Positions 30,512 to 44,554 of a stretch of DNA of 64,000 bases are shown piece by piece. The position numbers and the translations under genes are program-made. The notes under the pieces were generated by a model that was not told where the DNA came from, searched no databases, and worked only from the letters and a program-made list of their open reading frames with translations. This DNA comes from Bacteroidota bacterium (lineage in GTDB: Bacteria > Bacteroidota > Bacteroidia > B-17B0 > Aurantibacillaceae). The DNA lies in contig JAJNDK010000004.1 in assembly GCA_021156365.1 (NCBI GenBank), positions 255,137-319,136 on the forward strand, in the 5' to 3' direction. The first letter of the stretch is position 1. Each line of letters opens with the position of its first letter.

Positions 30512-30519
30512 TCCGGGGC

Positions 30520-31065
30520 TTATTTCCGGACCGTATCCCATTTCCCAAAATGCTGCAGGAAGATCTTCGCAATATTCCGTGCATCATCGATCCCGCGGTG
30601 GTGTGTGCCCTCAAGTTCGATCTTTTCCATCCACAGTGCGCCTGCCATTCCGGTATGTTTTTTCAGGCCTTTGATCCCGGTGTACTGATGTTTGAGACTG
30701 ATATGCTTTTCGAGCCAGGAGGTTTCCAGTTCGTGGAGCTCGCAATCGTTCTTCAGCTGCACGCGGTCATAATGGCCCCAGCTGCAGAGCAGGTAATCTT
30801 CTGTACCAATCCAGTTTCTGAATTTTTTCAGCACTTCCGGGAATGTTTCCGCAGCATCTACCTGCTCCTGGGTGATAGTTGTGAGTTTGATGCAGAAAGG
30901 CGAAAGCTGTGTATCCAGTTTGGGTTTCACAAATGCACAGAATTCGCTTTCAATAATTTTGTTTTCGTTGATGCAAAGCGCACCGATCTCAATGATCTCG
31001 TTTTTCTTTGATGGATCCCTCGGCTCCCAACAGGAGGCTTCGAGATCGAGTATAATGTATTTCAT
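30520..31065 (-). CDS. DEDDh 3'-5' exonuclease (ERI-1/KapD-like)
   Basis: Exo I DLEAS, Exo II, Exo III H-x4-D (HHRGIDDARN); 181 aa. Confidence 0.75.
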   Translation of the reverse strand: MKYIILDLEASCWEPRDPSKKNEIIEIGALCINENKIIESEFCAFVKPKLDTQLSPFCIKLTTITQEQVDAAETFPEVLKKFRNWIGTEDYLLCSWGHYDRVQLKNDCELHELETSWLEKHISLKHQYTGIKGLKKHTGMAGALWMEKIELEGTHHRGIDDARNIAKIFLQHFGKWDTVRK

Positions 31066-31080
31066 AATTTTCTTTTTTTG

Positions 31081-31398
31081 TTATAATTCTTTTTCTTCTT
31101 GTTTGTATTCACAGCGAATAGCTTTGCCATAAATGATCTTCGTCCAGCCATTCTCGAATCCATGATTGTTGGCGATCAGGAAGCCTTTATTCGTGTCTGT
31201 TTGAACGATCTTATGTGCATCTATGAAACGTCCTCTCACCTTGCAAAATACAATATCACCAATTTCATAGTGTTCAGCCTTTGTAAAGGTAAGCAGCGAA
31301 CCGCTTTTTAAAATGGGTAACATAGAATTGCCGAAGCATTTCATGGAACCTGTTCCTGTATTTTCTAATTCTTCTTTTAATCGTAAATATTTATTCAT
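31081..31398 (-). CDS. stand-alone S24-family (LexA/UmuD-like) peptidase domain protein
   Basis: GNSMLP Ser motif plus downstream Lys; 105 aa. Confidence 0.5.
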   Translation of the reverse strand: MNKYLRLKEELENTGTGSMKCFGNSMLPILKSGSLLTFTKAEHYEIGDIVFCKVRGRFIDAHKIVQTDTNKGFLIANNHGFENGWTKIIYGKAIRCEYKQEEKEL

Positions 31399-31453
31399 TT
31401 GTTTTTTTAATTGTAAAAAGCCCTGCTTCTATGGAAGCAGGGTCGGGTTTTAG

Positions 31454-32548
31454 TTATGGGCCGAACAGCGTTCGCAGCTGCGATGAAACGGGGCTCTCAC
31501 CGGAGATCGTAATACCATTGATCTTCGCTGTGATCTTTTCCACAAACTCCATCTCTTTGAGCTTGAACAGCATTGCATTGTCCTCCATCAGCTTCGCAGT
31601 GTTCAGAAGGCTACGTGTAGCTGCTGTTTCCTCACGACGCATGATGGTGTTGGCCTGTGCTTTTTTCTCCGCAATCAGTACCTGGTTCAGGATCTCTTTC
31701 ATATCACCTGGCAGGATGATGTCGCGGATACCACCACCGCGCAGTGCTACACCCAGTTCTTTGATACGTTCGGCAGCAGCTTCCAGGATGAAAGCGGAAA
31801 TGCTTTCTTTTTTATCCAGCAGTTCATCCAGGCTCAGCGCACCCACATACTCGCGCAGGACCAGCTGCATGATCACATAGAGTTGTTTTTCGTACTCTTT
31901 GTTATTCACCACTGCTTTCACAATGTCTTCAATGTGATACTGCACATAGAAATTGATACGCAGGCCCGCTTTGTCTTTGCTCAGGATCTCCTGGCCCGCG
32001 ATCTCCAGCTGCATCGTACGCATATCGGCACGCGTGATCACAATAGATGTGTTATTTTTCCAGAAGTAATACGAACCCGGTTCCATGATCTTCACGTATT
32101 TACCATCCATGTACATCACGGCTTTTTCACACGGCTCTACTGTATAAAAACGGATGTACTGGATCAGCTCTTTACGCATGTACAGGGATGGATCGATATC
32201 CGCACCGATCTCCGTTTTATTCAGATCCACGATTTTGAATTCCTGTATGATCAGACCTTTCCAGTATATATAAGTGCCGGGACCCAGCACTTCCATGAAC
32301 AGACCTTTTTCGTAACGCAGGGCAATCTCGTTATTTTTCACTTCAACGATATCGATAGCAGCTATGAAAGCCGGATCACGCATCAGGATATTGATGTTGC
32401 GGGGCGCAATGAATGGTTTCGCCATATCATATTCCACCAGCTCATCGAAGTAGGAAATACGATGTGCGCCTTCGGTCAGCACTGTTTTGTATTCGCCATC
32501 GGAAAATACCATGCCGATCTTACCGGCCTTTATTTTTATCTTTTTCAT
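31454..32548 (-). CDS. SPFH/band-7 (stomatin/flotillin-like) domain protein
   Basis: C-terminal SPFH core (LSLDELLDKKESIS...IKELGVALRGGGIRDIILPGDMKEILNQVLIAEKKAQA); start taken at MKKIKIKAGK. Confidence 0.65.
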   Translation of the reverse strand: MKKIKIKAGKIGMVFSDGEYKTVLTEGAHRISYFDELVEYDMAKPFIAPRNINILMRDPAFIAAIDIVEVKNNEIALRYEKGLFMEVLGPGTYIYWKGLIIQEFKIVDLNKTEIGADIDPSLYMRKELIQYIRFYTVEPCEKAVMYMDGKYVKIMEPGSYYFWKNNTSIVITRADMRTMQLEIAGQEILSKDKAGLRINFYVQYHIEDIVKAVVNNKEYEKQLYVIMQLVLREYVGALSLDELLDKKESISAFILEAAAERIKELGVALRGGGIRDIILPGDMKEILNQVLIAEKKAQANTIMRREETAATRSLLNTAKLMEDNAMLFKLKEMEFVEKITAKINGITISGESPVSSQLRTLFGP

Positions 32549-32872
32549 ATGTTTGTTTTTTCTTGTTTTTAAATTTAAAAGAAGGAATTGTTTCATTCAC
32601 CCGTGAATAGCGGAATCCTGTTTCAGTAAGCCGCTTTCGAATGGTTTTTATACAATTACAAGAAAGTCCATTGTATAAAAAGCAAAAGCTGTTGGCATAA
32701 CGGTATCCACATTCATCTGGCTTTCCACCGGTTGTTCCGTACCGCTTCCGGCGCGGAGCTGAATCAAACCATTCCTTTCTTTTTGAGCGCCATTTTTATA
32801 GAAGTCGGCATCTTCTCTTTTGAGGATCTGGAATCCTTTGCGTTTACCAGTTTCGCCACCCTGATTGCAACA

Positions 32873-32996
32873 TCAGGGGCAGGATTCGAACCTGCATGTT
32901 TGGTGTCACACTCTAACCACTGAGTTACCTGCATTGCTGCAGAACCGGATTCGAACCGGTGACCTTGACGTCATTCGTTCGTTAATCAACCGCAGC
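32873..32996 (-). pseudogene. two tandem degenerate tRNA-like fragments (D-arm plus T-arm, no anticodon arm)
   Basis: GTAACTCAGTGGTTAGAGT D-arm and GCAGGTTCGAATCCTGC / ACCGGTTCGAATCCGGT T-arms on the minus strand with incomplete acceptor stems. Confidence 0.3.
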
Positions 32997-33176: not shown

Positions 33177-33256
33177 GAACTATTTTTACTTCCTTTTTTT
33201 CTAAGCAACTGGAACAGAGCCGGAATACTTTTTTATCCCTTCCTGTTTTTGCTCAT

Positions 33257-33277
33257 CCGCGCAAATAGATTGCGTAG
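33257..33277. promoter_or_regulatory. palindromic operator copy (CCGCGCAA-N5-TTGCGTAG)
   Basis: ccgcgcaaatagattgcgtag. Confidence 0.5.
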
Positions 33278-33284
33278 ATCACTG

Positions 33285-33355
33285 TTCTCTTAACCGGAAT
33301 CGAACCAATATCTTATCCTTAGAAGGGATGTGTTTTTCCTTTAAACTATAAGAGA
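33285..33355 (-). tRNA. tRNA-Arg(UCU), AT-rich non-canonical
   Basis: hand fold: acceptor TCTCTTA/TAAGAGA, D-stem GTTT/AAAC, anticodon loop CTTCTAA, T-arm ATTGG-TTCGATT-CCGGT. Confidence 0.55.
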
Positions 33356-33358
33356 ATG

Positions 33359-33441
33359 TTCCTCCGAACCCCGATAGTTATCGGGGCGAACTTTTGTTTC
33401 GCGGTTAAAAGCCGCGAGCTCTGCCACTGAGCTACGAAGGA
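33359..33441 (-). ncRNA. tRNA-Lys(UUU)-like gene with T-arm replaced by palindromic hairpin CCCCGATAACTATCGGGG
   Basis: acceptor TCCTTCG/CGGAGGA, D-arm GCTC-AGTGGCA-GAGC, anticodon arm CGCGG-CTTTTAA-CCGCG; the T-arm position holds GTTCG[CCCCGATAACTATCGGGG]TTCGG. Confidence 0.45.
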
Positions 33442-33455
33442 ATTTATATTTTTAC

Positions 33456-33529
33456 TGGTAGCTCCTGATTGAATCGAACAATCACTTTATGGATGTAAGC
33501 CATACATTCTGCCTTTAAATTAAGGAGCT
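33456..33529 (-). tRNA. tRNA-Val(UAC), CCA encoded
   Basis: acceptor AGCTCCT/AGGAGCT, anticodon arm TATGG-CTTACAT-CCATA, T-arm GATTG-TTCGATT-CAATC, 3' ACCA encoded. Confidence 0.6.
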
Positions 33530-33535
33530 GTTTTG

Positions 33536-33607
33536 TTGCCTTAGAAAGAATCGAACCTTCACCCTCCGGTTTATGAGACCGGTGCTCCACCCTTGAGCTA
33601 TAAGGCA
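33536..33607 (-). tRNA. tRNA-Met/Ile2(CAU)
   Basis: acceptor TGCCTTA/TAAGGCA, D-arm GCTC-AAGGGTG-GAGC, anticodon arm CCGGT-CTCATAA-ACCGG, T-arm GAAGG-TTCGATT-CTTTC. Confidence 0.65.
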
Positions 33608-33613
33608 TTTTTG

Positions 33614-33685
33614 TTGTCTTAACAGGATTTGAACCTGTAGCCTCCGACGTATCAGGTCGTTGCTCCACCTGTTGAGCTATAAGAC
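33614..33685 (-). tRNA. tRNA-Ile(GAU)
   Basis: acceptor TGTCTTA/TAAGACA, D-arm GCTC..GAGC, anticodon loop CTGATAC, T-arm ACAGG-TTCAAAT-CCTGT. Confidence 0.6.
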
Positions 33686-33691
33686 AATGTG

Positions 33692-33762
33692 AGCAGAATA
33701 TCGGATTCGAACCGCGTCCCCTGGGTGGAAACCAGGTGCTTTACCACTAAGCTATATTCTGC
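33692..33762 (-). tRNA. tRNA-Gly(UCC)
   Basis: acceptor GCAGAAT/ATTCTGC (extendable to 9 bp), anticodon arm CCTGG-TTTCCAC-CCAGG, T-loop TTCGAAT with a weak 3-bp T-stem. Confidence 0.5.
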
Positions 33763-33906
33763 ATAGTATTCCCACGGTCCCGATAGCTATCGCGAGAACC
33801 CGTGTCTGGTCATTGAAAGTGACCGATCCTAACCATTAGAAGATGGGAACATAGTTCCTCTTCTTCATTCCTTTTGTTCTTCATTTTATTAATTATTAAT
33901 CGTTTG

Positions 33907-33975
33907 CACATTCACAGGGAATCGAACCTTGTCCTGCAGTTTTGGAGGCTGCGTGGCTACCATAGCCTTGAATGT
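33907..33975 (-). ncRNA. tRNA-like gene with 9-nt anticodon loop
   Basis: acceptor ACATTCA/TGAATGT, D-like hairpin GGCTA-TGG-TAGCC, stem GCAG-CCTCCAAAA-CTGC, T-arm ACAAGG-TTCGATT-CCCTGT. Confidence 0.35.
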
Positions 33976-33981
33976 AGTGGC

Positions 33982-34018
33982 GGTTCATAAGGGTCCCGAT
34001 AGCTGTCGGGACGGACCC
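33982..34018. repeat. extended palindromic element GGGTCCCGATAGCTGTCGGGACGGACCC
   Basis: member of the CCCGATAGCTATCGGG palindrome family (copies near 33369, 33779, 34265, 34974, 35372, 41201). Confidence 0.6.
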
Positions 34019-34232
34019 TTGTCTTCCGAGCGACAGTCGGAGATAATGGCCTTTATACCAATGAACCTGGTGCTTCGATAGATGCCGATGTGATGTACAA
34101 GGCTTTTGCAAACTTCGCCTTCATTGTCATCGGGCCGCGGACTTTAACCGCTCCTTGTACACTGCGCTTTGACAAGAGCACAGCTACATTTTTCGCATCT
34201 ATCCGGCGCGCCTTTGCATGGCTTACCGTTTG

Positions 34233-34318
34233 CGGACAAAGCAGGATTCGAACCTACTGCCTGATGCCCCGATAGCTATCGGGGCAGTCAACTGCTCATC
34301 CATATGAGCTTTTTGTCC
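34233..34318 (-). ncRNA. tRNA-like gene with anticodon arm replaced by a 22-bp perfect palindrome TGCCCCGATAGCTATCGGGGCA
   Basis: acceptor GGACAAA/TTTGTCC, D-arm GCTC-ATATGGAT-GAGC, T-arm GTAGG-TTCGAAT-CCTGC; the region between D- and T-arms is the palindromic hairpin with short flanks and no anticodon stem. Confidence 0.45.
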
Positions 34319-34328
34319 AATTTTTTTG

Positions 34329-34401
34329 AGCCAGTAGCAAGCCTCGAACTTGCGACCTTCTGCTTACAAGGCAGTTGCTCTTCCCGCTGAGCTATACCGG
34401 C
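34329..34401 (-). tRNA. tRNA-Thr(UGU), GC-rich canonical-looking
   Basis: acceptor GCCGGTA/TACTGGC, D-arm GCTC-AGCGGGAA-GAGC, anticodon arm ACTGC-CTTGTAA-GCAGA, T-arm GCAAG-TTCGAGG-CTTGC. Confidence 0.65.
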
Positions 34402-34462
34402 ATTTGAAGGTGAAAACGCAGTAAGCCAGGTTTTTCCTGATAGCTACACTCAATCACCTTTG

Positions 34463-34605
34463 TTGACCCGGATGGATTCGAACCATCGCAACCCGTGTTA
34501 ATCACTGACGAAAAATCTTAATCGATTTTTATCAGAATTAACCTTGATAAAACTTGTTTCGTCAAGGTTACAAGCACGGTACTCTACTTGCTGAGCTACA
34601 GATCA
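34463..34605 (-). ncRNA. tRNA-Thr(UGU)-like gene with ~70-nt structured insertion in the anticodon loop
   Basis: acceptor TGATCTG/CGGGTCA (2 GU pairs), D-arm GCTC-AGCAAGTA-GAGT, 5' anticodon stem CCGTG plus loop CTTGTAA, then insertion 34497-34566 with internal inverted repeats (CCTTGA..TCAAGG; AAAAATC..GATTTTT), then 3' stem CACGG, T-arm GATGG-TTCGAAT-CCATC. Confidence 0.4.
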
Positions 34606-34626
34606 ATAATTCAAGGAATACAATTT

Positions 34627-34772
34627 TTTAAAAGGGCAATGAACGAACATAGTTTTGGGTTTTCGTTAACAGCGAAGTAACTATGTTCTACGGCACCTTA
34701 TTTTAAAAGGCAATAAACGGGTATAGTTTTATTTTGCGTGACAGGCGAAGTAACTATACTCTACGGCACTTT
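34627..34772. repeat. two tandem ~73-nt paralogous hairpin units (candidate small structured RNAs)
   Basis: unit 1 has inverted repeat GAACATAGTT...AACTATGTTC; unit 2 has GTATAGTT...AACTATAC; the units share aaaggcaat..catagtttt..cgaagtaactat..ctacggcac. Confidence 0.45.
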
Positions 34773-34774
34773 TG

Positions 34775-34847
34775 TCGATCTACCTGGATTCGAACCAGGG
34801 ACTTCAGTCTTAAAAGGACTGAGCTCTGCCAACTGAGCTATAGACCG
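34775..34847 (-). tRNA. tRNA-Lys(UUU)
   Basis: acceptor CGGTCTA/TAGATCG, D-arm GCTC-AGTTGGC-AGAGC, anticodon arm CAGTC-CTTTTAA-GACTG, T-arm CCTGG-TTCGAAT-CCAGG. Confidence 0.65.
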
Positions 34848-34849
34848 AA

Positions 34850-35400
34850 ATTTGAATGGGTAAAAATCGAAAGAGAACGTTTTGGCGCTCTATCCGCTGA
34901 GCTATAAGGCAATGAAATGAATATTGGTTGCCTCAATGGGATTCGAACCCATGACCTCCCGATTAAGAGTCGATCCCGATAGCTATCGGGACTTTTCTAC
35001 GACACCATTCAATGGTTTTGATGAGGAAAAAAACGTTCAGTGCTTTTGTTAACTGAGCTACTCTTCATTGCTGAAAGATTGGACTTGAACCAATGGCCTT
35101 CCCGACATTTATCGTCGGGGCGCTCTACCGAAGTATCACTTTACTACGTCACTCATCAATGTTTTTAAACAGGTAAAAAGCTGTAAAAGTTTTTTGTCTT
35201 GTGCTCTAACCAACTGAGCTATCTGCCTTTCGACAAAACCGGACTCGAACCGGTGCCCCCAAGGTTAACGATGTATCTCTTACATACGACACTGTTTAAT
35301 TTTGAAGAAAGAGCGATGGTTGCGGGAGCGTGTCTTAGAGGATTCGAACCTCTGACCTTTCGGCCTCACCATCCCGATAGCTATCGGGAGAAGTATCTCT
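34850..35400 (-). pseudogene. run of degenerate or rearranged tRNA-like fragments with palindrome insertions
   Basis: 5' half TGCCTTATAGCTCAGCGGATAGAGC (34850-34913); 3' half ..ATGGGTTCGAATCCCATTGAGGCAACCA with palindrome (34925-35012); Leu(UAA)-like anticodon hairpin CCCGAC-GATAAAT-GTCGGG plus T-arm ATTGG-TTCAAGT-CCAAT (~35060-35110); 5' half GGCAGATAGCTCAGTTGGTTAGAGCAC (~35200); T-arm ACCGG-TTCGAGT-CCGGT (~35235); element 35320-35400 with palindrome, GAAA-tetraloop hairpin and T-arm AGAGG-TTCGAAT-CCTCT. None folds into a complete cloverleaf by hand. Confidence 0.3.
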
Positions 35401-35447
35401 CCGCGAACGGCATCTTTCAATAGGTTTGTCAGGAGCAATTGCGATCC

Positions 35448-35520
35448 GCAGTGATGGAGACCTGCCGGCGGGGATTTGCACCCCGTTCCGTTTCTGCACC
35501 GGAACCCTCTCTCCTATGGA
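35448..35520 (-). ncRNA. D-armless tRNA-like hairpin RNA with TGCAAAT T-loop (candidate Y-RNA-like)
   Basis: GGAGAGA..TCTCC closing stem, stem GTTCCG/CGGAAC, T-like arm GGGG-TGCAAAT-CCCC; located ~290 bp downstream of the rsr stop. Confidence 0.35.
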
Positions 35521-35589
35521 TGGTATGCTCACCGCGATCTACGGCAACCTGACAATGTGTTTAATTATATGCTGTCAAAAGCGAAATGC

Positions 35590-35660
35590 GATGAGGGCAG
35601 GGGATACGCAATGAGGATTTGCACCTCTTCCTGATTGTAATGTCAGGACCCTTCCCCTTC
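35590..35660 (-). ncRNA. D-armless tRNA-like RNA with TGCAAAT T-loop (candidate Y-RNA-like)
   Basis: closing stem GGGGAAG/..TATCCCC, anticodon-like arm TCCTGA-CATTACAA-TCAGGA, T-like arm GAGG-TGCAAAT-CCTC; paralog of 35448-35520; ~150 bp downstream of rsr. Confidence 0.35.
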
Positions 35661-35744
35661 AATGGCGCGAAGTAGCCCTTTTCTGCGGCATTCTGGCAGC
35701 AATGTTTTTTTGTCTTTGAATAATATGTCAATGAACGAATTTCT

Positions 35745-35797
35745 TTTAAAACCTCCCTGTCTCCTTCGACAAGCTCAGGATGACGGGGGAGGAGTTT
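35745..35797 (-). terminator. rho-independent terminator of rsr
   Basis: minus strand CCTCCCCCGTCATCCTGAGCTTGTCGAAGGAGACAGGGAGG followed by TTTT; loop sequence resembles the terminator at 63065-63110. Confidence 0.6.
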
Positions 35798-35803
35798 TTT
35801 ATT

Positions 35804-37321
35804 TTATAATTCAATTTGTTTGATTTTTTCTACTGCACCCACACCATTTTCGATAGCGTGCAATACATCAAACACTTTGTCCGACCAACCTGCGATCAGG
35901 TGTACATCGTTTTTCTGAACGTTCAGCGGCGTGTTTCCATGGCCCGCAAGATCGAACAGGTACAATTTTGCTTTTGGCGCGATCGCTTTGTAGGCATTCC
36001 AGGATTTCTCCAGGGAAGAACCCGCATGACGGCTATCCCACAGCTGGCAGTCGGTGAACAGCATCACTTTATCCATCACCACGTTTCGTGCGATCAGGTC
36101 ATCGATCACTTTGTAACCATTGGTCGAGTAACCCACTTCACCTTCACGTTTGTAGTATTGGTCCACATTGGCCAGTACTCCGCGGTTTGGCAGGTTGATC
36201 ACTTTCCAGGTATCACCGAACATACCTGATACCACACGCTTACATTTCGACTGCATCAGCATACCCAGCATCAGGCCGATGTCGTAAAACATCACTTTGC
36301 TTTTAGCCGATACGGCTTGCTGCATCGAACCGGATACGTCACATGCTACCAGCACGGCAGTGTTCTCGTCGAAACCTTTCAGGTTCTTAACGCTTGCCAC
36401 CACTGCATCTTCCAGCGCATTCAATACCATGGTCACGAACTCCGAGTTCATCACTTTGATCTCACGGTGCGCTGCGAGGAAACGGAATGGCAACTGTTTC
36501 GAGTTTGCCACCGCAGTCTCATTCGACAGGTAAGCGCATACTTTTTTCACATGCGAAGCAGATACTTTTGCTTCCAGTATGTTACGCAGGTTACGCATCA
36601 AAGCCATATAACCAACTTTACCGCTGTCGATCAGTTCTTCCCATTTAGCACGGAAAGCTGCAGCCTTTTCTTTATCGTTGGCATATTTTGTCTGACCCAA
36701 TGCCGACAGCTCAGTTTCCCAGGTGTATGGAACAGCCAGTTCGTTCGCAGCTATTTTATTGAACACCACTTGCTGGTTCTCGTCTTTCGCTTTTGGATGC
36801 ACTATGAACAGGGCGTCACGCAATTTCACTTCCGCATCCCGATTGTATTTTGCGAACTGGTATTCATCGAAACGGTTGAAAGATACTGCCAGCCCTTTCT
36901 GGATCTGCTTCGACAGCTTATTCAGCTTTTTAGTACCGTTACGTTTGTTGGCCAGCTGGTAATATGCCAGGAGCTCGGTGATCTCATCGGCACGTTTTAC
37001 CACGCCCGATACGGTTTTACCTACCACCGCATCACCGGAGTTCAGTTTGGCCAGTTCTACCGCCAGTACCATTGGGATCGAACGCATATACATTTCGTTA
37101 CGTGCATACACTGCCAGTTTCGCTACGTATTGTGCATCGTTTTTCAACATCAGCTCACGGATACGTGTCAAACGGGTATCTGCTTTCTCATAGAAGCTGT
37201 CGTTTAGGCCCGCAGTTACTACCGCTGAGTATAGCTCCAGCTCAGGAGTCAGTTGGAATGCTTTTGCACCTTCATAGTTTGTAACTACGTTTTCTGTTTT
37301 TTTGAAGATGTTGAATTTCAT
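35804..37321 (-). CDS. rsr: Ro60-like (TROVE domain plus vWA/MIDAS) ribonucleoprotein Rsr
   Basis: 505 aa; N-terminal TROVE-like helical repeats (NYEGAKAFQLTPELELYSAVVTAGL...MRSIPMVLAVELA); C-terminal vWA MIDAS (VLVACDVSGSMQ). Confidence 0.8.
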   Translation of the reverse strand: MKFNIFKKTENVVTNYEGAKAFQLTPELELYSAVVTAGLNDSFYEKADTRLTRIRELMLKNDAQYVAKLAVYARNEMYMRSIPMVLAVELAKLNSGDAVVGKTVSGVVKRADEITELLAYYQLANKRNGTKKLNKLSKQIQKGLAVSFNRFDEYQFAKYNRDAEVKLRDALFIVHPKAKDENQQVVFNKIAANELAVPYTWETELSALGQTKYANDKEKAAAFRAKWEELIDSGKVGYMALMRNLRNILEAKVSASHVKKVCAYLSNETAVANSKQLPFRFLAAHREIKVMNSEFVTMVLNALEDAVVASVKNLKGFDENTAVLVACDVSGSMQQAVSAKSKVMFYDIGLMLGMLMQSKCKRVVSGMFGDTWKVINLPNRGVLANVDQYYKREGEVGYSTNGYKVIDDLIARNVVMDKVMLFTDCQLWDSRHAGSSLEKSWNAYKAIAPKAKLYLFDLAGHGNTPLNVQKNDVHLIAGWSDKVFDVLHAIENGVGAVEKIKQIEL

Positions 37322-37391
37322 TTTGTTTAGTTTTTAAATTTCTTGTTTATCAATTGTTGTTCTTAATCAGCACTGCAAAGATTCTATACTC

Positions 37392-37412
37392 CTGCGCAAC
37401 AGAATTGCGCAG
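37392..37412. promoter_or_regulatory. perfect palindromic operator CTGCGCAA-cagaa-TTGCGCAG upstream of rsr
   Basis: 71-91 bp upstream of the rsr start; 8-bp arms are exact reverse complements. Confidence 0.65.
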
Positions 37413-37503
37413 TAAAAAAATAATTCGCGGAACGATCAAATAAATCTGTAATGTGTTGATTTTCATTTGAGATAATTTCAAAAGAAAATTCATCTCTTTC
37501 CTA

Positions 37504-37524
37504 TTGCGCAAATAGATTGCGCAG
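37504..37524. promoter_or_regulatory. palindromic operator TTGCGCAA-ataga-TTGCGCAG upstream of the WYL regulator gene
   Basis: 51-71 bp upstream of the WYL gene start; likely autoregulatory site. Confidence 0.65.
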
Positions 37525-37574
37525 ATAAATGAAATGTTTATCTTTGATACAACCTGTTTTTAAATAAAAACGTT

Positions 37575-38588
37575 ATGCCCATTAATAAATTAGCCCTTGT
37601 TCGCTACAAAACCATCGACAATTGTTTACAGAACCGTTTTCGCAAATGGACGCTGGACGACCTGATGGAGGCGGTTTCCGAAGCTTTGTATGAATACGAA
37701 GGTATCACCAAAGGCATCAGCCGGAGAACCATACAGCTTGATCTGCAAAACATGCGCAGTGAGAAACTTGGTTACAATGCACCGATCGTAGTAACGGATA
37801 AAAAGTTCTACAGTTACGAAGACAAGCAGTACAGCATCACCAGTATTCCTTTAACAGAACAGGATATGGGCACGTTGAACGAAGTGTTGGGTGTTCTGAA
37901 ACAATTCAAAGGCTTTGGTTATTTCCAGGAACTTACCGGGATGGTAACCAAGCTCGAGGACAAGCTTTATAAGCAACAGCATAAAGGCAAATCATATATC
38001 GATTTTGAAAAAAACGAATTGCTCAAAGGTTTAGAGTTTATTGATCCTTTGCACAAAGCGATCATCAATCGTAAAACGATCGAGATCACTTATCAATCCT
38101 TTAAAGCGAATCAATCACAGCAGATCGTTTTTTATCCTTATCTACTGAAAGAATACCGCAATCGCTGGTTCCTCTTCGGTATGAACAGAAAAGGCAGCTC
38201 AGCGATGATCCTTGCACTGGACCGCATTGAGAAGTTCAAAGAGCTCTCCGAAAAATATGTGAAAGCACCTTTCGATGCGCACATGTTTTTCGATGATGTG
38301 ATCGGTGTAAGTAAAGCGCCCGGACAAAAACCATCAACCATTGTGATGAAGATCGACAAAGAAAATGCACCTTATGTGATCACCAAGCCGATCCATCCTT
38401 CGCAAAAGATCCTGAAGGAAGAACCCGACGGGATCTTATTCAGCATTGATGTTGTCTGGAACTTTGAGCTGGAACGTGAATTGCTTGGCTTCGGTGAGAA
38501 GCTGCACATACTTTCTCCGCGTAGGCTTGCCGGAAAAATACAATCGCGTTTGAAACACACATTACAAAAATATCAAAGAACGGAATAA
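37575..38588 (+). CDS. HTH-WYL-WCX domain transcriptional regulator
   Basis: N-terminal wHTH (LALVRYKTIDNCLQ), WYL signature (IVFYPYLLKEYRNRWFLFGMN), C-terminal WCX-like region. Confidence 0.8.
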   Translation: MPINKLALVRYKTIDNCLQNRFRKWTLDDLMEAVSEALYEYEGITKGISRRTIQLDLQNMRSEKLGYNAPIVVTDKKFYSYEDKQYSITSIPLTEQDMGTLNEVLGVLKQFKGFGYFQELTGMVTKLEDKLYKQQHKGKSYIDFEKNELLKGLEFIDPLHKAIINRKTIEITYQSFKANQSQQIVFYPYLLKEYRNRWFLFGMNRKGSSAMILALDRIEKFKELSEKYVKAPFDAHMFFDDVIGVSKAPGQKPSTIVMKIDKENAPYVITKPIHPSQKILKEEPDGILFSIDVVWNFELERELLGFGEKLHILSPRRLAGKIQSRLKHTLQKYQRTE

Positions 38589-38594
38589 TACGTG

Positions 38595-38670
38595 TCGGGA
38601 AAGCAGGATTTGAACCTGCGAACTCTCGCTTCCAGGGCGAGCGGGGACGGCCTGACTCCCCCATTTCCCG
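38595..38670 (-). tRNA. tRNA-Pro(UGG)-like, C at position 33
   Basis: acceptor CGGGAAA/TTTCCCG (C1:G72 as in bacterial tRNA-Pro), D-arm GGGG-AGTCAGGCCGT-CCCC (11-nt loop), anticodon arm CTCGC-CCTGGAA-GCGAG, T-arm GCAGG-TTCAAAT-CCTGC. Confidence 0.5.
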
Positions 38671-38681
38671 TTTTATCTTTG

Positions 38682-38755
38682 TCGATCAATGAGGACTCGA
38701 ACCTCAAACCTTCTGATTCGTAATCAGGTGCTCTATCCAATTGAGCTATTGATCG
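38682..38755 (-). tRNA. tRNA-Arg(ACG)
   Basis: acceptor CGATCAA/TTGATCG all Watson-Crick, D-arm GCTC..GAGC, anticodon loop TTACGAA, T-arm TGAGG-TTCGAGT-CCTCA. Confidence 0.7.
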
Positions 38756-38756
38756 G

Positions 38757-38832
38757 TGGTGGACAAGGGTGGGATCGAACCACCTTCTCCGGATTTTCAG
38801 TCCGGCGCATAGACCAACTCTGCTACTTGTCC
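38757..38832 (-). tRNA. tRNA-Phe(GAA), CCA encoded
   Basis: acceptor GGACAAG/CTTGTCC, anticodon arm CCGGA-CTGAAAA-TCCGG, T-arm GGTGG-TTCGATC-CCACC, ACCA 3' end; only 1 nt from the preceding gene. Confidence 0.6.
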
Positions 38833-38956
38833 ATTTCATCAACACTTTATGCAAGCCACCTTCCGGATTTTAAAGTGGCTGCTTTTGCCACTTTGAGGTC
38901 GCTATTCGCTCGGTTCAATCCGCTGCATTGACCATCTTTGCTACATTTCCATTTTG

Positions 38957-39029
38957 GGTGAGATAGGGGAATTGAACCCGTATCTGCGGCATCACAAGCC
39001 GATGTGTTGACCATTACACCAATCTCACC
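38957..39029 (-). tRNA. tRNA-His(GUG) with encoded G-1 and C73
   Basis: G-1 plus acceptor GTGAGAT/ATCTCAC, D-arm GTGT-AATGGTCA-ACAC, anticodon arm TCGGC-TTGTGAT-GCCGC, T-loop TTCAATT. Confidence 0.55.
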
Positions 39030-39067
39030 ATGTTTCAATTGTAGCAAAACGTTCGCTGCAATTGTAG

Positions 39068-39143
39068 TCGGGAAGGCTGGATTCGAACCAGCGAACTCCT
39101 GCGTCCAAGGCAGGCGGGGACGACCTGACTCCCCTACTTCCCG
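39068..39143 (-). tRNA. tRNA-Pro(UGG), paralog of 38595-38670
   Basis: acceptor CGGGAAG/CTTCCCG, D-arm GGGG-AGTCAGGTCGT-CCCC, anticodon arm CCTGC-CTTGGAC-GCAGG, T-arm GCTGG-TTCGAAT-CCAGC. Confidence 0.55.
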
Positions 39144-39172
39144 TAGTTTTTTTATCGGTCTACAAACCGAAG

Positions 39173-39267
39173 TGGGAAAGACAGTCACGCTATAGCGTGA
39201 GAACCTGCTAAGCCTTGCGGCGACGGAGTTACAGTCCGTCTCAACTCACCATCGTTGACGCTTTCCC
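39173..39267 (-). ncRNA. tRNA-Tyr(GUA)-like gene with T-arm replaced by a 6-bp/TATA-tetraloop palindromic hairpin
   Basis: acceptor GGGAAAG/CTTTCCC, class-II D-arm TCAA-CGATGGTGAG-TTGA, anticodon arm ACGGA-CTGTAAC-TCCGT, variable arm GCC-GCAA-GGC, then TCACGC-TATA-GCGTGA where the T-arm should be. Confidence 0.4.
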
Positions 39268-39274
39268 ATTTTTG

Positions 39275-39348
39275 TACCCTCTACAGGATTCGAACCTGCA
39301 CTCTCTTGTTTCTAAGACAAGCGCCTTTGCCTGTTTGGCTAAGAGGGC
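39275..39348 (-). tRNA. tRNA-Leu(UAG)-like lacking the long variable arm
   Basis: acceptor GCCCTCT/AGAGGGT, 3-bp D-stem with long D-loop GCC-AAACAGGCAAA-GGC, anticodon arm CTTGT-CTTAGAA-ACAAG, 5-nt variable AGAGT, T-arm GCAGG-TTCGAAT-CCTGT. Confidence 0.45.
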
Positions 39349-39356
39349 ATATTTTG

Positions 39357-39439
39357 CGGAAGGTATAGGAATCGAACCCTGCCCTTGTGGACCGCCCAAG
39401 ATTTCAAGTCTTGTTGTACACCATTGTACGCTACCTTCC
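39357..39439 (-). tRNA. tRNA-Ser(UGA)-like (class II length)
   Basis: acceptor GGAAGGT/ACCTTCC, D-stem GTAC/GTAC, anticodon arm CAAGA-CTTGAAA-TCTTG, long variable region, weak T-stem around TTCGATT. Confidence 0.45.
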
Positions 39440-39440
39440 G

Positions 39441-39535
39441 TTGCGGAGAATTGAGTTCCCGACACTCATCCCGACGATACTGTCAGGACACCATGCTTAG
39501 CAGGCAGGTCCGGGCCCCGCCCGGTTAATTCTCCA
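39441..39535 (-). ncRNA. structured RNA with tRNA-like closing stem (GGAGAAT/ATTCTCC) and no T-loop
   Basis: internal hairpins CCGGGC-GGGG-CCCGG and direct repeat TCGGGA..TCGGGA. Confidence 0.2.
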
Positions 39536-39542
39536 TATGTTG

Positions 39543-39615
39543 TACCCCCTGCAGGATTCGAACCTGCATGCTCTTGTGTCTGAGACAAGCGCCTTTACCG
39601 TTTGGCCAAGAGGGC
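39543..39615 (-). tRNA. tRNA-Leu(CAG)-like lacking the long variable arm (paralog of 39275-39348)
   Basis: acceptor GCCCTCT/AGGGGGT, D-arm GCC-AAACGGTAAA-GGC, anticodon arm CTTGT-CTCAGAC-ACAAG, T-arm GCAGG-TTCGAAT-CCTGC. Confidence 0.45.
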
Positions 39616-39616
39616 G

Positions 39617-39725
39617 TTGGTGGGAGGCAGGATCTTTAACTGTCAGGCGACAGAGTATCCTGCAGACAGACGGTTCTTCCACGCCCATCCGGATCTCCCA
39701 AGTGTTTCGGAAGATCTGCTCCCCG
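39617..39725 (-). ncRNA. ~105-nt structured RNA closed by a 12-bp stem (GGGGAGCAGATC/GATCCTGCCTCCC)
   Basis: internal hairpin CTGTC-AGGC-GACAG; no tRNA motifs. Confidence 0.2.
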
Positions 39726-39735
39726 TATTTTTTTG

Positions 39736-39807
39736 TTGTCAGGGATGGATTCGAACCACCGCTTTCAGAGCCAAATTCTGACGTCCTGCCAATTAGACGA
39801 CCTGACA
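39736..39807 (-). tRNA. tRNA-Gln(UUG)
   Basis: acceptor TGTCAGG/CCTGACA, D-arm GTCT-AATTGGCA-GGAC, anticodon arm TCAGA-ATTTGGC-TCTGA, T-arm GGTGG-TTCGAAT-CCATC. Confidence 0.6.
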
Positions 39808-39817
39808 GTATTTCTTT

Positions 39818-39852
39818 AAAACAAAAAGGCCCGATCTTTTTTAAGGATCGGG
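39818..39852 (-). terminator. rho-independent terminator downstream of the Rnl5-type ligase gene
   Basis: GGCCCGATC..GATCGGGCC 9-bp stem followed by TTTTTGTTTT on the minus strand. Confidence 0.6.
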
Positions 39853-39958
39853 CCTGCGCATATTTATGCACACCAATCCTGGTCAATCATCGTATAGTGA
39901 TTGAAAACTAAACCGAATACTATACGGTCGTTGTCCTGTTTTTATATTTCCGTCTTTT

Positions 39959-40960
39959 TTATTCATCGTATTTGATCAAAAAATCCGGATTGATCGCTTT
40001 GAAGGATACACGACCCTGCAAACTGTATTTGTCTGTCATTTCCTCAACAGGCCTGATAACAATACCTTCGGCGATAGTATCTGCGTGAAGCACCGATCTC
40101 ATTTTGGATTTAGCGATTAGTTTTTCGATATCGCTTTCCAGCATGTAACCTTCCTCCAATACAGGAACCATTTTCAGCTCTAGGTCGTTCAGCAGTTGCT
40201 TTGCTTCCTTCAGTGACAAATAGCTGTAGCTATCGATCGCAAACACGTTGAAGAAATGCACATGCTGACCTTTCAGTTTGTATTTATTCTTCTGAATGCC
40301 TTCACCTATGATCTCGCCCTGCAATGCAATGTTCGAACCCAGTTGTTTCAGCTTTTCTTCCAGCTTATTTTCTACTGCAAACTTCCACATGGAATTGCTT
40401 TCGTCAAACAGCAGATCCAGGTTCCTGGAGCAAACACCGAACTCACCATCTTTGAAGTAGAAAGTAGCTGAACTACCATCTAATTTTTCGGTTACGTAGC
40501 ATGCGATCCCTTCATATTTGTCCAATACCTTCTGCAATACCTGCACCCTGGTCTCATCTGTTTTAGGGATGAAAGAAGGGAACATACCTTTTACCTCGCC
40601 TGCTAAATTCGCAGGAATTGGCGGCTCGAACTTCGTTACGCCTAAGATGTCGGTTACGTCCAGGTCTTCTTCCACCTGTATTCCTTCCGGAAGTACATTT
40701 AATGGAAAGCAGATACCCTGTGAGATCTGGCCACGCAGCCTGATGGTTTTGATCCTGTTGCTTTTTGCACGAACAAATTCAAACTCCGGCTTATCAGGCA
40801 TCACGCTATCGATCTCGCAATACACACAGAGATCATCGATGGCAAAATCACCTTTACGGATCACTAACTGCCAACCCAACACGCTTGCTTTTTCAATGGC
40901 ATCGGCGCCTTCTATCGGCTCTATATTTTTTATCCTTTGTATGGATGCTAATTTTCTCAT
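39959..40960 (-). CDS. ATP-dependent RNA ligase, Rnl5/DraRnl (DRB0094) type: N-terminal OB fold plus nucleotidyltransferase
   Basis: N-terminal OB-like region (MRKLASIQRIKNIEPIEGADAIEKASVLGWQLVIRKGDF), motif I KxDG (TEKLDGSSATFYF); start taken at MRKLAS. Confidence 0.7.
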   Translation of the reverse strand: MRKLASIQRIKNIEPIEGADAIEKASVLGWQLVIRKGDFAIDDLCVYCEIDSVMPDKPEFEFVRAKSNRIKTIRLRGQISQGICFPLNVLPEGIQVEEDLDVTDILGVTKFEPPIPANLAGEVKGMFPSFIPKTDETRVQVLQKVLDKYEGIACYVTEKLDGSSATFYFKDGEFGVCSRNLDLLFDESNSMWKFAVENKLEEKLKQLGSNIALQGEIIGEGIQKNKYKLKGQHVHFFNVFAIDSYSYLSLKEAKQLLNDLELKMVPVLEEGYMLESDIEKLIAKSKMRSVLHADTIAEGIVIRPVEEMTDKYSLQGRVSFKAINPDFLIKYDE

Positions 40961-41097
40961 ATTTACCTCCCTTGTCCTGACATTATCGTCAGGGTTTACC
41001 CCGACACTTGTCGTCGTTAATTTTGTTTTAATTTTCTTTCGCACGGGCTGCACCACCTCTCCCTCTACAGTGCAGCCCCGATCAGCTTTCGATGATA

Positions 41098-41859
41098 CTA
41101 ATTGTTATTTAAGATCCTGTGGCTCAGGAAAGCTCTGTCCTTTGTGAAGATGGGAACTTCTTTACTTACCCATCTGCTCCGGATCGCACCTTCTCTTTCG
41201 TCCCGATAGCTATCGGGATCTTTTTCGATGATCCTCCCTCTTTTGTATTTCGGTGCATAGTCGTTCCAGTTAATACCTTTCTGAAAGATCAGCTCCTGTT
41301 GCTCGTCACTGCTTTTGCCACTCAACTCTTTGTGGCTATACAGAGACTGTGCTACGGAAGCGATACTGTTCCGGGTGGTATCCTGTTGTCTCCAGATGAA
41401 GTAGTTTTCTACTTCTGCTTTGGACGGGATCTGGAACACCCTGCTGTCGAACAATGCTACCTTCTCCGGTCGCAGTTGATTGAACCTTACAGTTGCAAGG
41501 CTTGCAGACACGCTGCAGATCTTCTGGATATTTCCTTCGAACCATGCACTGGTATTGATGTCGTCAAAGTCAGTCAAAAGGATAGAGATCTCATCGGACT
41601 GTACGAAGGCAAACTTTGCACCCTGGATATTCTGGCAGAGATAAGCGGCAGTTTCATCCATGTCGTTTATCAGCTTATCATCGAAGGGTTTTTCCAAACC
41701 CCTGGTATACGTGTGAAAGGCTTTACCATCTACCCGGATCAATGTGTATGTTCTCCGCGGAATGAAGTACCGTGTCCGGTCTTCATAAAACGCTTTCATC
41801 CTGTCACCTAATGTATCTTTCATTTCTTTTTTGTTAACTGTTAGTATTTTCTGAGCCAT
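41098..41859 (-). CDS. Thg1-like protein (tRNA 3'-5' nucleotidyl polymerase)
   Basis: Thg1 catalytic region LIRVDGKAFHTYTRGL...FVQSDEISILL; start uncertain (MAQKIL or MKDTLG); contains an in-frame copy of the palindrome TCCCGATAGCTATCGGGA encoding DPDSYRD. Confidence 0.75.
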   Translation of the reverse strand: MAQKILTVNKKEMKDTLGDRMKAFYEDRTRYFIPRRTYTLIRVDGKAFHTYTRGLEKPFDDKLINDMDETAAYLCQNIQGAKFAFVQSDEISILLTDFDDINTSAWFEGNIQKICSVSASLATVRFNQLRPEKVALFDSRVFQIPSKAEVENYFIWRQQDTTRNSIASVAQSLYSHKELSGKSSDEQQELIFQKGINWNDYAPKYKRGRIIEKDPDSYRDEREGAIRSRWVSKEVPIFTKDRAFLSHRILNNN

Positions 41860-41861
41860 AA

Positions 41862-41895
41862 AAAAACCCGGGCATTTTGCGTGCCCGGGTTTTTC
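41862..41895 (-). terminator. hairpin terminator (CCCGGGCA..TGCCCGGG plus T-run) immediately upstream of the Thg1-like start
   Basis: seen in sequence. Confidence 0.5.
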
Positions 41896-44296: not shown

Positions 44297-44304
44297 GTTT
44301 TTTT

Positions 44305-44535
44305 AAAAAATTGGAAGGGCAGGGCTTTCTTCGTTCACTTTGAGGACTGGGTTGGTCAACTCAAGCGGTACGCATCCAGTACGCTATTTCACTTCCGGGA
44401 AGTCTCACCGGAAATGGCGTACTGGATGCAGTACCGCACAGTAAAGAACAGACCAGTGATGCATTACTAATCTGTTGGCATGAACAGCGATCCACTGTTC
44501 GGGTTGCAAGATGTTTGCCTGCGCCTTCCAAAATG
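44305..44535 (-). ncRNA. candidate retron msr/msd non-coding RNA
   Basis: inverted repeats a1 TTGGAAGGCGCAGGCAAAC (44512-44530) and a2 GAAAGCCCTGCCCTTCCAATT (44308-44328) flank a long hairpin GCGGTACTGCATCCAGTACGC...GCGTACTGGATGCGTACCGC (44364-44436); immediately 5' of the RT on the same strand. Confidence 0.5.
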
Positions 44536-44554
44536 TTTTTGTTTTGTAAGTATA

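Follow-up and report, generated by a model that had tools for sequence, protein, structure and literature searches.

The 64,000-nt stretch of DNA analysed here, called the window throughout, comes from a Bacteroidota bacterium (GenBank assembly GCA_021156365.1, contig JAJNDK010000004.1, positions 255,137 to 319,136 of the forward strand). Between 32.8 and 39.9 kb it holds a group of RNA genes, all on the minus strand, in which rsr, the gene of a Ro60 orthologue, is accompanied by about eight Y-RNA-like units; of the tRNA-type genes found here, 17 are intact and at least five have a GC-rich palindrome in place of one loop or arm. An earlier note on this stretch, made from the sequence alone, had described tRNA-like genes with exactly one arm replaced by a perfect palindrome. 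We report here that P1, an 18-nt perfect palindrome (TCCCGATAGCTATCGGGA), or a one-mismatch variant of it occurs in four of the tRNA-type genes, in two Y RNA units and in the open reading frame (ORF) of a Thg1-like enzyme, that related genomes have intact tRNA genes at corresponding positions, and that P1 is probably a very small dispersed repeat which overwrote loops of these genes.

Palindromes in tRNA-type genes around rsr

The copies of P1 in the window are far too many to be expected by chance. With up to three mismatches, CCCGATAGCTATCGGG has nine matches against 0.13 expected, and none of 100 shuffled sequences reached nine. Perfect palindromes of at least 14 nt number only seven in the 64 kb; four of these belong to the P1 family and one is the palindrome of a Tyr gene described below.

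Four of the altered genes lie downstream of rsr. The Lys(UUU)-type gene (Lys2, 33358-33442) has a P1 variant, CCCCGATAACTATCGGGG on the RNA strand (33369-33386), in place of its T arm, with GTTCG on both sides. Its minimum free energy (MFE) fold consists of a 7-bp acceptor stem, a D arm, a 6-bp anticodon arm with the loop CUUUUAA and, at the T-arm position, the 8-bp hairpin CCCCGAUAACUAUCGGGG with GUUCG on each flank (z = -4.3). In the Glu(UUC)-type gene (33766-33851), a P1 variant with one stem mismatch (33778-33795) follows GGGTTC in the T loop, and in the Asp(GUC)-type gene (33978-34067), which has an encoded CCA, another one-mismatch variant lies in the T loop (33994-34011). The fourth gene, derived from tRNA-Asn (34233-34318), keeps its acceptor, D and T arms in canonical form, but its anticodon is overwritten by a perfect 22-nt palindrome that contains the P1 core (34265-34286); in the fold (z = -5.1) this palindrome lengthens the anticodon stem. 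Upstream of rsr, a class-II Tyr(GUA)-type gene (39171-39268) carries a different 16-nt palindrome, P2 (TCACGCTATAGCGTGA, 39185-39200), after AGGTTC in the T loop, where it forms a 6-bp hairpin as the T loop on a retained 4-bp T stem (z = -3.1). A canonical 7-nt T loop on a 5-bp stem is therefore present only in the Asn-derived gene, the Glu, Asp, Tyr and Lys2 genes having a palindrome of 16-18 nt instead. The anticodons UUU (Lys), UUC (Glu), GUC (Asp) and GUA (Tyr) can still be read; that of the Asn-derived gene has been overwritten.

These genes largely escape standard annotation. ARAGORN called 17 tRNA genes in two blocks (33284-34847 and 38594-39807), and an Rfam tRNA search recovered the same 17 and three extra weak matches. 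None of the five altered genes was called by ARAGORN at default settings; Lys2 was called tRNA-Lys only at the 80% threshold, and a run at the 70% threshold with introns allowed gave a result that amounted to noise and was set aside. The gathering score of the Rfam tRNA family (RF00005), 29 bits, was reached only by the Asn-derived gene (37.4 bits, with a 17-nt insertion). Lys2 scored 24.8 bits (33389-33441), and the Glu, Asp and Tyr types gave no match even at E <= 10. Covariance models and ARAGORN fail, or require insertions, precisely at the palindromes.

Ordinary tRNAs mis-folded by hand would, by the earlier note, have spoken against the observation; the palindromes remain after covariance models, ARAGORN and thermodynamic folding, with z-scores from -3.1 to -5.1. 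The MFE folds agree with what it had drawn for the Lys(UUU)-type element (33359-33441, a hairpin at the T-arm position) and for 34233-34318 (canonical acceptor, D and T arms around a 22-nt palindrome at the anticodon). Its class-II Tyr(GUA)-type gene with a hairpin (39173-39267) was likewise correctly recognised, except that the whole T arm is not replaced: only the T loop is, and the 4-bp T stem is left. The palindromes it had seen at 34925-35012 and 35320-35400 also exist, but these elements are not tRNA cloverleaves; they are parts of two Y RNA units, Y6 and Y3. The description of the palindromes as perfect applies to the Asn and Tyr genes, whereas three of the four P1 copies in tRNA genes have one mismatch, which in two cases falls in the stem. 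Finally, all sites that had been named are real, but the list was incomplete, the Glu-type gene at 33766-33851 and the Asp-type gene at 33978-34067 having been missed; a further copy lies in the Thg1-like ORF.

This last copy (41201-41218, in an ORF on the minus strand) is read in frame as PDSYRD. The encoded protein has EKDPDSYRDER where 11 homologues have EKxxYEK, a net gain of four residues (12 nt), and the six codons encoded by P1 are absent in the homologues. A gain of 12 nt is compatible with the addition of 6 + 6 nt around an ancestral AGCTAT, as deduced from the xYEK consensus (one homologue has SYEK); L247, the sole Thg1 homologue compared at the DNA and codon level, has GCT TTT at the would-be seed.

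At two further sites, the loop of P1 itself is split by another small palindrome (TCGCGAGGCTTCGCGA). These composite hairpins, at 1310-1350 and 23915-23960, are mutually inverted and lie 22.6 kb apart, the second of them at the left edge of the RNA-repair island described below.

Empty sites in related genomes and P1 beyond the window

We compared the window with 80 Rsr loci and with metagenome and viral loci (labelled L001 and so on). In L003, the Rsr of which is 80% identical to that of the window, a colinear array has intact tRNA-Asn(GUU) (L003:134-207), Asp(GUC) (L003:368-442) and Glu(UUC) (L003:1740-1813) at the positions that bear P1 in the window, and intact orthologues of the Tyr(GUA) gene are found in L001, L192, L248 and L250; descent from tRNA genes is thereby established for these four types. 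The non-coding spacer between Asn and Asp is common to the window and L003 (BLAST block, window 34262-34012 to L003 177-423). Within it, a non-coding stretch of about 150 nt (34084-34232, minus strand) is 75% identical at L003:205-360 and L012:15507-15609; it has no Rfam match, and its fold is no better than that of shuffled sequences (z = -1.0). For Lys2, no orthologue was found in L003, where Val and Arg(UCU) stand 4 nt apart. The reverse case was also observed: Leu(UAG) of L192 has P1 in its T loop, and Leu(UAG) of the window is intact.

Relative to the orthologues, 16-18 nt were added in the window and about 0-7 loop nucleotides disappeared, which leaves a net change of +16 (Asn), +15 (Asp), +13 (Glu) and +11 (Tyr). 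In none of the genomes compared is a hairpin-bearing gene conserved at the orthologous position; a different gene is altered in each. The near-identical contigs L247, L248 and L249 were compared for polymorphism and are identical. These comparisons show that the palindrome events are lineage-specific, and the sequences suggest that they took place at the level of DNA.

P1 is not confined to such arrays. A metagenome scan with the exact 16-mer P1 core gave at least 135 sites in at least 120 loci, and the site statistics that follow hold among the matches listed. The 18-mer was present in 46 viral stretches of IMG/VR, and 18 copies with up to two mismatches occur in the 80 Rsr loci, mostly in Flavobacterium isolates, where they lie in repeat-rich intergenic DNA around the rsr-Y RNA-rtcB operon and mostly without tRNA context. 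The Rsr loci closest to that of the window, L001-L019, have no copy. Taken together, P1 spans Flavobacteriales, Cytophagales, a Chitinophagales-like metagenome-assembled genome (MAG) and phage contigs, mostly as a singlet. Its contexts are mutually unrelated; among them are tandem-repeat tracts, composite repeats and terminator-like stems as well as ORFs and plain intergenic DNA. The outer pair (T-A, C-G or A-T) is T...A in 102 of 132 sites and complementary in 125 of 132. At 28 of 132 sites P1 lies in an ORF of 150 aa or more, always in one of its two stop-free frames (PDSYR or PIAIG).

No target-site duplication was detected at these sites, a slight excess of 4-nt direct repeats being due to copies inside tandem repeats. 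Nor did we find a strong target motif; flanking k-mers are only modestly enriched (TCCCG 4-fold, and TAGCTC 11-fold, the latter from D arms). The idea that P1 always sits atop a pre-existing hairpin was rejected: beyond the outer pair about 1.9 of 7 flank positions are complementary against 1.75 expected, and long stems capped by P1 account for only about 5% of copies.

A preference for tRNA-like genes is nevertheless apparent. A canonical T arm lies within 130 nt of 10 of the 135 P1 sites as compared with 0.3% of control positions in the same loci, an enrichment of approximately 24-fold. The junctions also recur. GGTTC is followed by P1 in the T loop of the window Glu gene, in Leu(UAG) of L192, in a Pro-type gene of L033 (the Flavobacterium isolate F. 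panici PXU-55) and in L139, and TAGCTC(N) is followed by P1 in the D loop in L144, L157, L174 and L181 and likewise, in a class-II tRNA, in L158. In the D loop of L157, CAGCUGG has become C[UCCCGAU]AGCU[AUCGGGA]GG, with seven nucleotides added on each side of a pre-existing AGCU.

Other arrangements of P1 were seen in these loci. L093, L144, L157, L158, L174 and L181 contain a partial 5' tRNA copy (26-55 nt) whose D loop has P1 in place of 3-4 nt; the same tRNA (Ala, Phe, Leu, Met or Val) follows as an intact copy 20-60 nt downstream. L158 also has a full tRNA copy with palindromes in the D and T loops alike. Many phage and metagenome contigs (L203, L213, L229, L244, L089, L096, L170 and others) have P1 as part of a larger recurrent unit, CCTCACCCC[P1]CTCTCC..GGAGAGGGGA, an arrangement that points to a family of composite repeats.

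P1 is also not the only hairpin at these junctions. A second Leu(UAG)-type gene of L248 has a decayed P1 in its D loop and the entire T arm replaced by TCACGACGCGTCGTGA, and a partial Ser copy in the same locus carries TCACGCTTTGGCGTGA. In L250, a paralogous Leu-type gene has a decayed form of the L248 Leu hairpin, and a Pro-type gene has TCACGACACGTCGTG after GGTTCG. Together with P2 of the window Tyr gene, these hairpins form a TCACG...CGTGA family whose arms vary symmetrically. Two of its members, P2 and P3, were tested exactly and had 0 matches each in IMG/VR; the idea that they are dispersed repeats was rejected on this result.

The Y RNA cluster and the RNA-repair island

The Y-RNA-like units Y1-Y8 (34623-35698) lie downstream of rsr (35804-37321), on the same minus strand and within 4 kb, with a tRNA-Lys gene (34774-34847) in between. 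Each opens with G(U/C)CGU...UAC(U/A)UCG, in its fuller form G(U/C)CGUAG...UAC(U/A)UCG. Rfam YrlA matches at 35180-35283 (38.4 bits), 34861-34976 and 32884-32981 lie at 31-38 bits and so below the gathering score of 69; the scores recorded for the units were 38.4, 35.9 and 31.5 bits, with E from 3e-6 to 3e-4 in a 3-kb search; matches at the same place in related Rsr loci reach up to 50.4 bits. Within 2 kb downstream of rsr, the Bacteroidota Y motif was found in 75 of 79 Rsr loci, with a mean of 4.0 per locus as compared with 0.014 in control stretches.

Two of the units were hit by P1. Y6 (34858-35006) is YrlA-like (31.5 bits, E = 9e-4) and consists of a Ro-type terminal stem, a small hairpin, a T arm, a closed acceptor-like stem and a D arm. 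In an alignment of six sequences of its family, 11 of 32 pairs show compensatory change, six of them in the closed acceptor-like stem. Where five orthologues have GAGATACT, Y6 has P1 (34974-34991), which destroys the otherwise conserved GAUACU motif and breaks two pairs of the terminal stem. Y3 (35315-35414), with a terminal stem, a GAAA-capped hairpin and a T arm, has P1 at 35372-35389 after TACTTC; its orthologues in L001, L003, L060, L038 and also L250 are all without it.

YrlA-type Y RNAs are known tRNA mimics that accompany rsr and have the motif GNCGAAN0-1G (PMC4201824). Like the cluster described here, they lie on the same strand as rsr and at most 4 kb downstream, in several copies per locus and with RNA-repair genes nearby (PMC4201824; RF02553), and they share the order of the tRNA-like domain, in which T arm, closed acceptor-like stem and D arm follow one another inside a terminal stem. 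The cluster differs in its far lower scores, in having G(U/C)CGUAG in place of the YrlA motif, and in its number of units, which is 3-6 per Bacteroidota locus and about eight here, placed among real tRNA genes and with P1 in two of them. It is a divergent, multi-copy form of the known rsr-YrlA module, and the genuine tRNA mimics of this locus are its YrlA-type Y RNAs.

The tRNA genes flank this module on both sides. The downstream array (33284-34847) has intact genes for Lys, Thr, Trp, Gly, Ile, Met, Val and Arg(UCU), in addition to the four P1-bearing genes and a second Thr(UGU) gene. The latter (34462-34605) has a 70-nt insert at the canonical 37/38 intron position with two inverted repeats inside; the insert is far too short for a group I intron, and the gene scores 42.2 bits as a tRNA with a 72-nt insertion. 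The upstream array (38594-39807) has intact genes for Gln, Leu(CAG), Ser(UGA), Leu(UAG), Pro, His, Phe, Arg(ACG) and Pro, and four other members, all on the minus strand, the first being the Tyr gene with P2. The second is a Ser(GCU)-type class-II cloverleaf (39440-39541), whose D arm is a 6-bp GC hairpin (CCGGGCGGGGCCCGG) and whose T loop, GUCGGGA, is non-canonical. It was missed by both tRNA finders and is probably a real gene, because it is kept in the sister arrays of L248 and L250 with a covarying variable arm. The third is a tRNA-shaped RNA (39616-39734), in which a GGGAG/CUCCC acceptor stem is followed by ACCA and three long hairpins stand for the D, anticodon and T arms, with a T-arm-like stem GCAGGAU/AUCCUGC around another small hairpin (z = -4.6); no conservation was found in L192 or L250. 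The fourth is a decayed duplicate of tRNA-Phe (38833-38955) just upstream of the intact gene, which has lost its T arm and has an apparent insert of about 42 nt splitting the anticodon loop. Between the first tRNA of this array and the RNA ligase gene, a structured leader (39808-39958, minus strand; z = -6.2) ends in a strong terminator-like hairpin and is also kept at L248:2541-2800 and L250:8946-9200.

The protein encoded by rsr, central in the locus, has TROVE (E = 9e-29) and vWA domains, and 556 relatives were found in Bacteroidota genomes, the closest in Chitinophaga-like MAGs. A gene for a WYL-WCX regulator (37575-38588, plus strand) diverges from it. The arrays and rsr lie inside an RNA-repair island that spans 24-42 kb. 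On one side are genes for RlaP, Pnkp (kinase-phosphatase), an Rnl1-like ligase, a VIT-vWA protein, RNase T, an S24 peptidase and SPFH (24010-32596); on the other, both on the minus strand, are those for an RNA ligase with a PHA02142 OB fold (39959-41056) and the Thg1-like enzyme (41098-41913), the product of which is matched at 100% identity by a protein from a Bacteroidetes MAG. The earlier note had pointed out a clustering with RNA-repair enzymes, and this is borne out by Pnkp, the Rnl1-like ligase, RlaP, the RNA ligase and the Thg1-like enzyme in the flanks. By tblastn, no Thg1 homologue was found in the Rsr loci; close homologues occur on L251 and L252, two contigs of phage-like make-up (numerous small ORFs, an integrase), and a TROVE (Ro60-like) gene is also present on one of them. 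A type XIII retron (RT_XIII, SWIM_XIII and WGR_XIII; 42785-49256, minus strand) abuts the island. At 42053-42080, a T run comes after a perfect palindrome of 28 nt (AAAGGTCCCGAAAATTTTCGGGACCTTT), which has the arms TCCCGA/TCGGGA in common with P1.

A dyad of another kind, YTGCGCAA-N6-TTGCGCA, occurs twice in the rsr/WYL intergenic region (37392-37412 and 37504-37524) and once upstream of the Rnl1-Pnkp-RlaP operon (27100-27119), with a variant near 33255-33275, and is also kept in L003 and L038. The WYL regulator likely uses this dyad as its operator, and if so, the two gene blocks, on the rsr side and the Rnl1-Pnkp-RlaP side, would belong to one regulon.

Insertion, decoys and other readings

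All of these observations are best accommodated, in our view with a probability of about 60%, if P1 is a very small dispersed repeat, akin to repetitive extragenic palindromic (REP) elements and small dispersed repeats (SDR), that overwrote loops of accessory tRNA and Y RNA genes. The target would have been the accessory tRNA and Y RNA array around rsr inside the repair island, with at least seven arrivals of P1 within 8 kb of the island. As the filled and empty sites show, each event overwrote a few target nucleotides and added the palindrome, in the T loop (Glu, Asp), the T arm (Lys2), the anticodon loop (Asn), two Y RNA units and one ORF; the rarer TCACG...CGTGA family did the same to the Tyr T loop. 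What the earlier note called a replaced arm is accordingly better described as overwritten loop nucleotides. Such events may have been favoured by single-stranded loop segments of strongly hairpin-forming genes and perhaps, judging from very few cases, by short seeds that resemble the centre of the palindrome (AGCT, GATA). The altered tRNA genes would then descend from normal accessory tRNAs but be crippled, or neutral at best, and they could persist because the array is dispensable.

We favour insertion and decay because the orthologues are intact, a different gene is altered in each genome, the P1 copies contain mismatches, a conserved Y RNA motif and an anticodon were destroyed, copies occur in ORFs and intergenic DNA, and excision in silico restores nothing. 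The earlier note had offered a REP-like insertion, or one resembling a miniature inverted-repeat transposable element (MITE), with a preference for tRNA genes as one of two explanations, and the intact orthologues, the dispersal, the ORF copy and the enrichment near T arms all support it.

Several observations, however, weigh against this reading. First, L248, L250 and the window Tyr gene have other hairpins at the same T-loop or T-arm position, the two tested exactly being without a match in IMG/VR, which a single dispersed repeat is insufficient to explain. Second, the number of target nucleotides lost varies, so that the events are no clean cut-and-paste insertion, and no transposase domain, including that of the REP-associated tyrosine transposases (RAYTs), was detected by Pfam in 50 ORFs, which are nearly every non-nested ORF of at least 150 aa in the window excluding a 2079-aa ORF (56778-63017) and a few nested or smaller ones. 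Third, of the seven copies with at most one mismatch six lie within 2.1 kb of the 64 kb, the background density being known from the window only. Fourth, the folds show no broken pair in the acceptor and anticodon stems of the altered genes; simple decay of a pseudogene would be expected to leave less of the cloverleaf intact, although the mismatches in P1 could come from variant donor copies. Finally, the altered genes of the window are NAN-box tRNAs only (Lys, Glu, Asp, Asn and Tyr; five of eight NAN-box genes versus none of 16 others in a post hoc count), and in the segment 34401-33284 all four NAN-box genes are altered against none of the seven others.

Some of these points are what the foremost alternative would predict, namely that the hairpin genes are functional decoys or sensors. 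Expressed tRNA-like RNAs without a T loop (or an anticodon) could be substrates for anticodon nucleases and for the repair enzymes of the island (Pnkp, Rnl1, RlaP, RNA ligase, the Thg1-like enzyme and Rsr), the hairpin being a cassette recruited from a dispersed repeat. From the sequences at hand we regard this as possible but unlikely. Five or more related arrays show this design, at least two hairpin families take part in it, and the T-loop junction is the same every time; the P2 and P3 families are not dispersed in IMG/VR. Hairpin variants keep perfect complementarity (UCACGC/GCGUGA versus UCACGACG/CGUCGUGA, and the three forms of the P1 outer pair), the acceptor, D and anticodon arms are unblemished and Asp has its encoded CCA. 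The genes are located within an RNA-repair island, and the Ser(GCU)-like gene with its 6-bp GC hairpin is kept in three arrays. The altered genes of the window, furthermore, are exactly NAN-box tRNAs (Q34 and xm5s2U34 families), the classical targets of colicin E5, PrrC and zymocin.

In a sharper and somewhat less probable version, which we hold to be doubtful, the genes would be deliberate T-loop-less tRNA-shaped RNAs whose NAN-box anticodon arms (Lys, Glu, Asp and Tyr) serve as nuclease bait. The capped T loop would bar them from translation, and they would be sacrificed as substrates to Ro60, Pnkp, RNA ligase and the Thg1-like enzyme or signal damage to these. A dedicated structure-targeting mechanism would write the hairpins into tRNA loops as modular cassettes. 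Under this version, a different gene would be altered in each genome because of fast turnover in an arms race.

Evolved tRNA mimics or decoys had been the second explanation of the earlier note, which held that related genomes without conserved hairpin versions would speak against it; intact tRNAs are what these genomes have, and by this test the proposal is unsupported and rather unlikely. Decoys also fit poorly with the Asn gene, which lost its anticodon and not its T loop, and with the decay seen in P1 copies of tRNA genes and in the P3 copy of L250. The same palindrome wrecks a conserved Y RNA motif, and further copies are found inside an ORF, within tandem repeats and in plain intergenic DNA. 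As a general rule, the NAN-box restriction was rejected: outside the window hairpins are carried by Leu, Pro, Ala, Met, Val and Phe genes.

Two further readings appear much less plausible. P1 could be a DNA operator for a dimeric regulator, such as the WYL protein. It is a perfect 18-bp dyad, copies of which cluster around rsr operons in Flavobacterium loci, but the rsr/WYL promoter region here, in L003 and in L038 has the different dyad described above, P1 lies within RNA genes, ORFs, tandem repeats and phage contigs, and the closest Rsr loci have no copy; we therefore consider this improbable. Still harder to sustain is an intron-like insert that would be removed from the RNA by an endonuclease and the RNA ligases of the island to yield working tRNAs. 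The inserts are located in loops, as are non-canonical archaeal tRNA introns; RNA ligases, Pnkp and the Thg1-like enzyme adjoin, RtcB is found in syntenic loci, and the Thr(UGU) gene of the array has its insert at the canonical position. Deletion in silico of 16, 18 or 20 nt, however, restored an ARAGORN tRNA at none of the window sites and at one of 166 overall, and splicing could not regenerate a 7-nt T loop or a GUU anticodon from which nucleotides have been lost. The region has no intron family match in Rfam, and ORFs and intergenic DNA contain the same palindrome. That the structures are a hand-folding artefact or chance palindromes in ordinary tRNA genes can practically be dismissed, for although the first reading was made without tools and two of its five elements were indeed not tRNAs, nine matches were found where 0.13 were expected and the folds reproduce the drawn structures with z from -3 to -5.

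If P1 is the small dispersed repeat that we favour, its closest analogues are short repeats of other bacteria. REP sequences and REPINs are mobilised by RAYT transposases. No RAYT was seen in the scanned ORFs of the window, and P1 further differs in being an 18-nt perfect dyad that is mostly a singlet rather than a doublet, in crossing orders, in having about one fifth of its copies in ORFs and not in extragenic DNA, and in overwriting target nucleotides. It resembles them in its siting in repeat-rich intergenic DNA, where it sometimes caps terminator-like hairpins, and like them it is a short, GC-rich, hairpin-forming, high-copy dispersed palindrome with covarying stem positions (PMC3116915).

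The in-frame ORF and RNA-gene sites of P1 have a parallel in the Rickettsia palindromic elements. These elements of 100-150 bp are restricted to Rickettsia and enter protein genes in frame, as well as RNA genes, without abolishing the host gene; P1 has 18 nt and belongs to Bacteroidota. At the lower end of the size scale, the HIP1 octamer is a very small dispersed repeat of cyanobacteria, in which small dispersed repeats of 21-27 nt have also been described (Elhai et al., 2008, as cited in PMC3116915). These repeats are like P1 in being below MITE size, nested in other repeats and tandem tracts, and inferred to be mobile from filled and empty sites; they are unrelated to it in sequence and phylum. 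We know of no description of a tRNA-loop preference for the cyanobacterial small dispersed repeats, and the P1 sequence itself was not found in the literature searched. P1 differs from all repeats compared here by its size, perfect dyad, conservation across orders, target overwriting and tRNA-loop preference.

The locus as a whole also has counterparts. Accessory tRNA arrays occur in mobile elements and phages, and T4-type repair by Pnkp and Rnl1 counters anticodon nucleases. Like phage arrays, the window has a near-complete second tRNA set beside Pnkp, an Rnl1-like ligase, RlaP, a Thg1-like enzyme, an RNA ligase and Ro60, and its island matches the RNA-repair toolkits of phages and cells with Pnkp and Rnl1 (PMC7824862). 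Unlike these arrays, it has hairpins substituted in one fifth of its members and is fused with a Y RNA cluster. In the T-armless or D-armless tRNAs of nematode and mite mitochondria, a short replacement loop is what is left of the arm, and adapted factors allow these tRNAs to work. The altered genes are similar to these in lacking a canonical T loop and keeping the acceptor and anticodon arms, but they have a longer perfect hairpin and normal orthologues.

In summary, the rsr loci of Bacteroidota hold clusters of 3-6 or more divergent Y RNAs that fall below the Rfam threshold for YrlA. Should the decoy reading after all be true, the hairpin genes would be a new type of RNA-based counter-defence. 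A weaker form of the sharper version above would make P1 and its relatives the smallest mobile elements yet known whose preference for the loops of tRNA-like genes is a structural one. If, as we favour, P1 is a dispersed repeat that overwrote loops, it would be a sub-MITE repeat that behaves like the smallest class of dispersed repeats in bacteria, conserved across Bacteroidota orders and phage contigs, with a measurable preference for the loops of tRNA and tRNA-like genes and with precise, recurrent junctions. Filled and empty sites would then fix the event to the nucleotide and provide a handle on how sub-MITE repeats spread. It would also follow, as a warning for annotation, that accessory tRNA arrays in RNA-repair and defence islands hold many hairpin-disrupted genes that tRNA finders skip.

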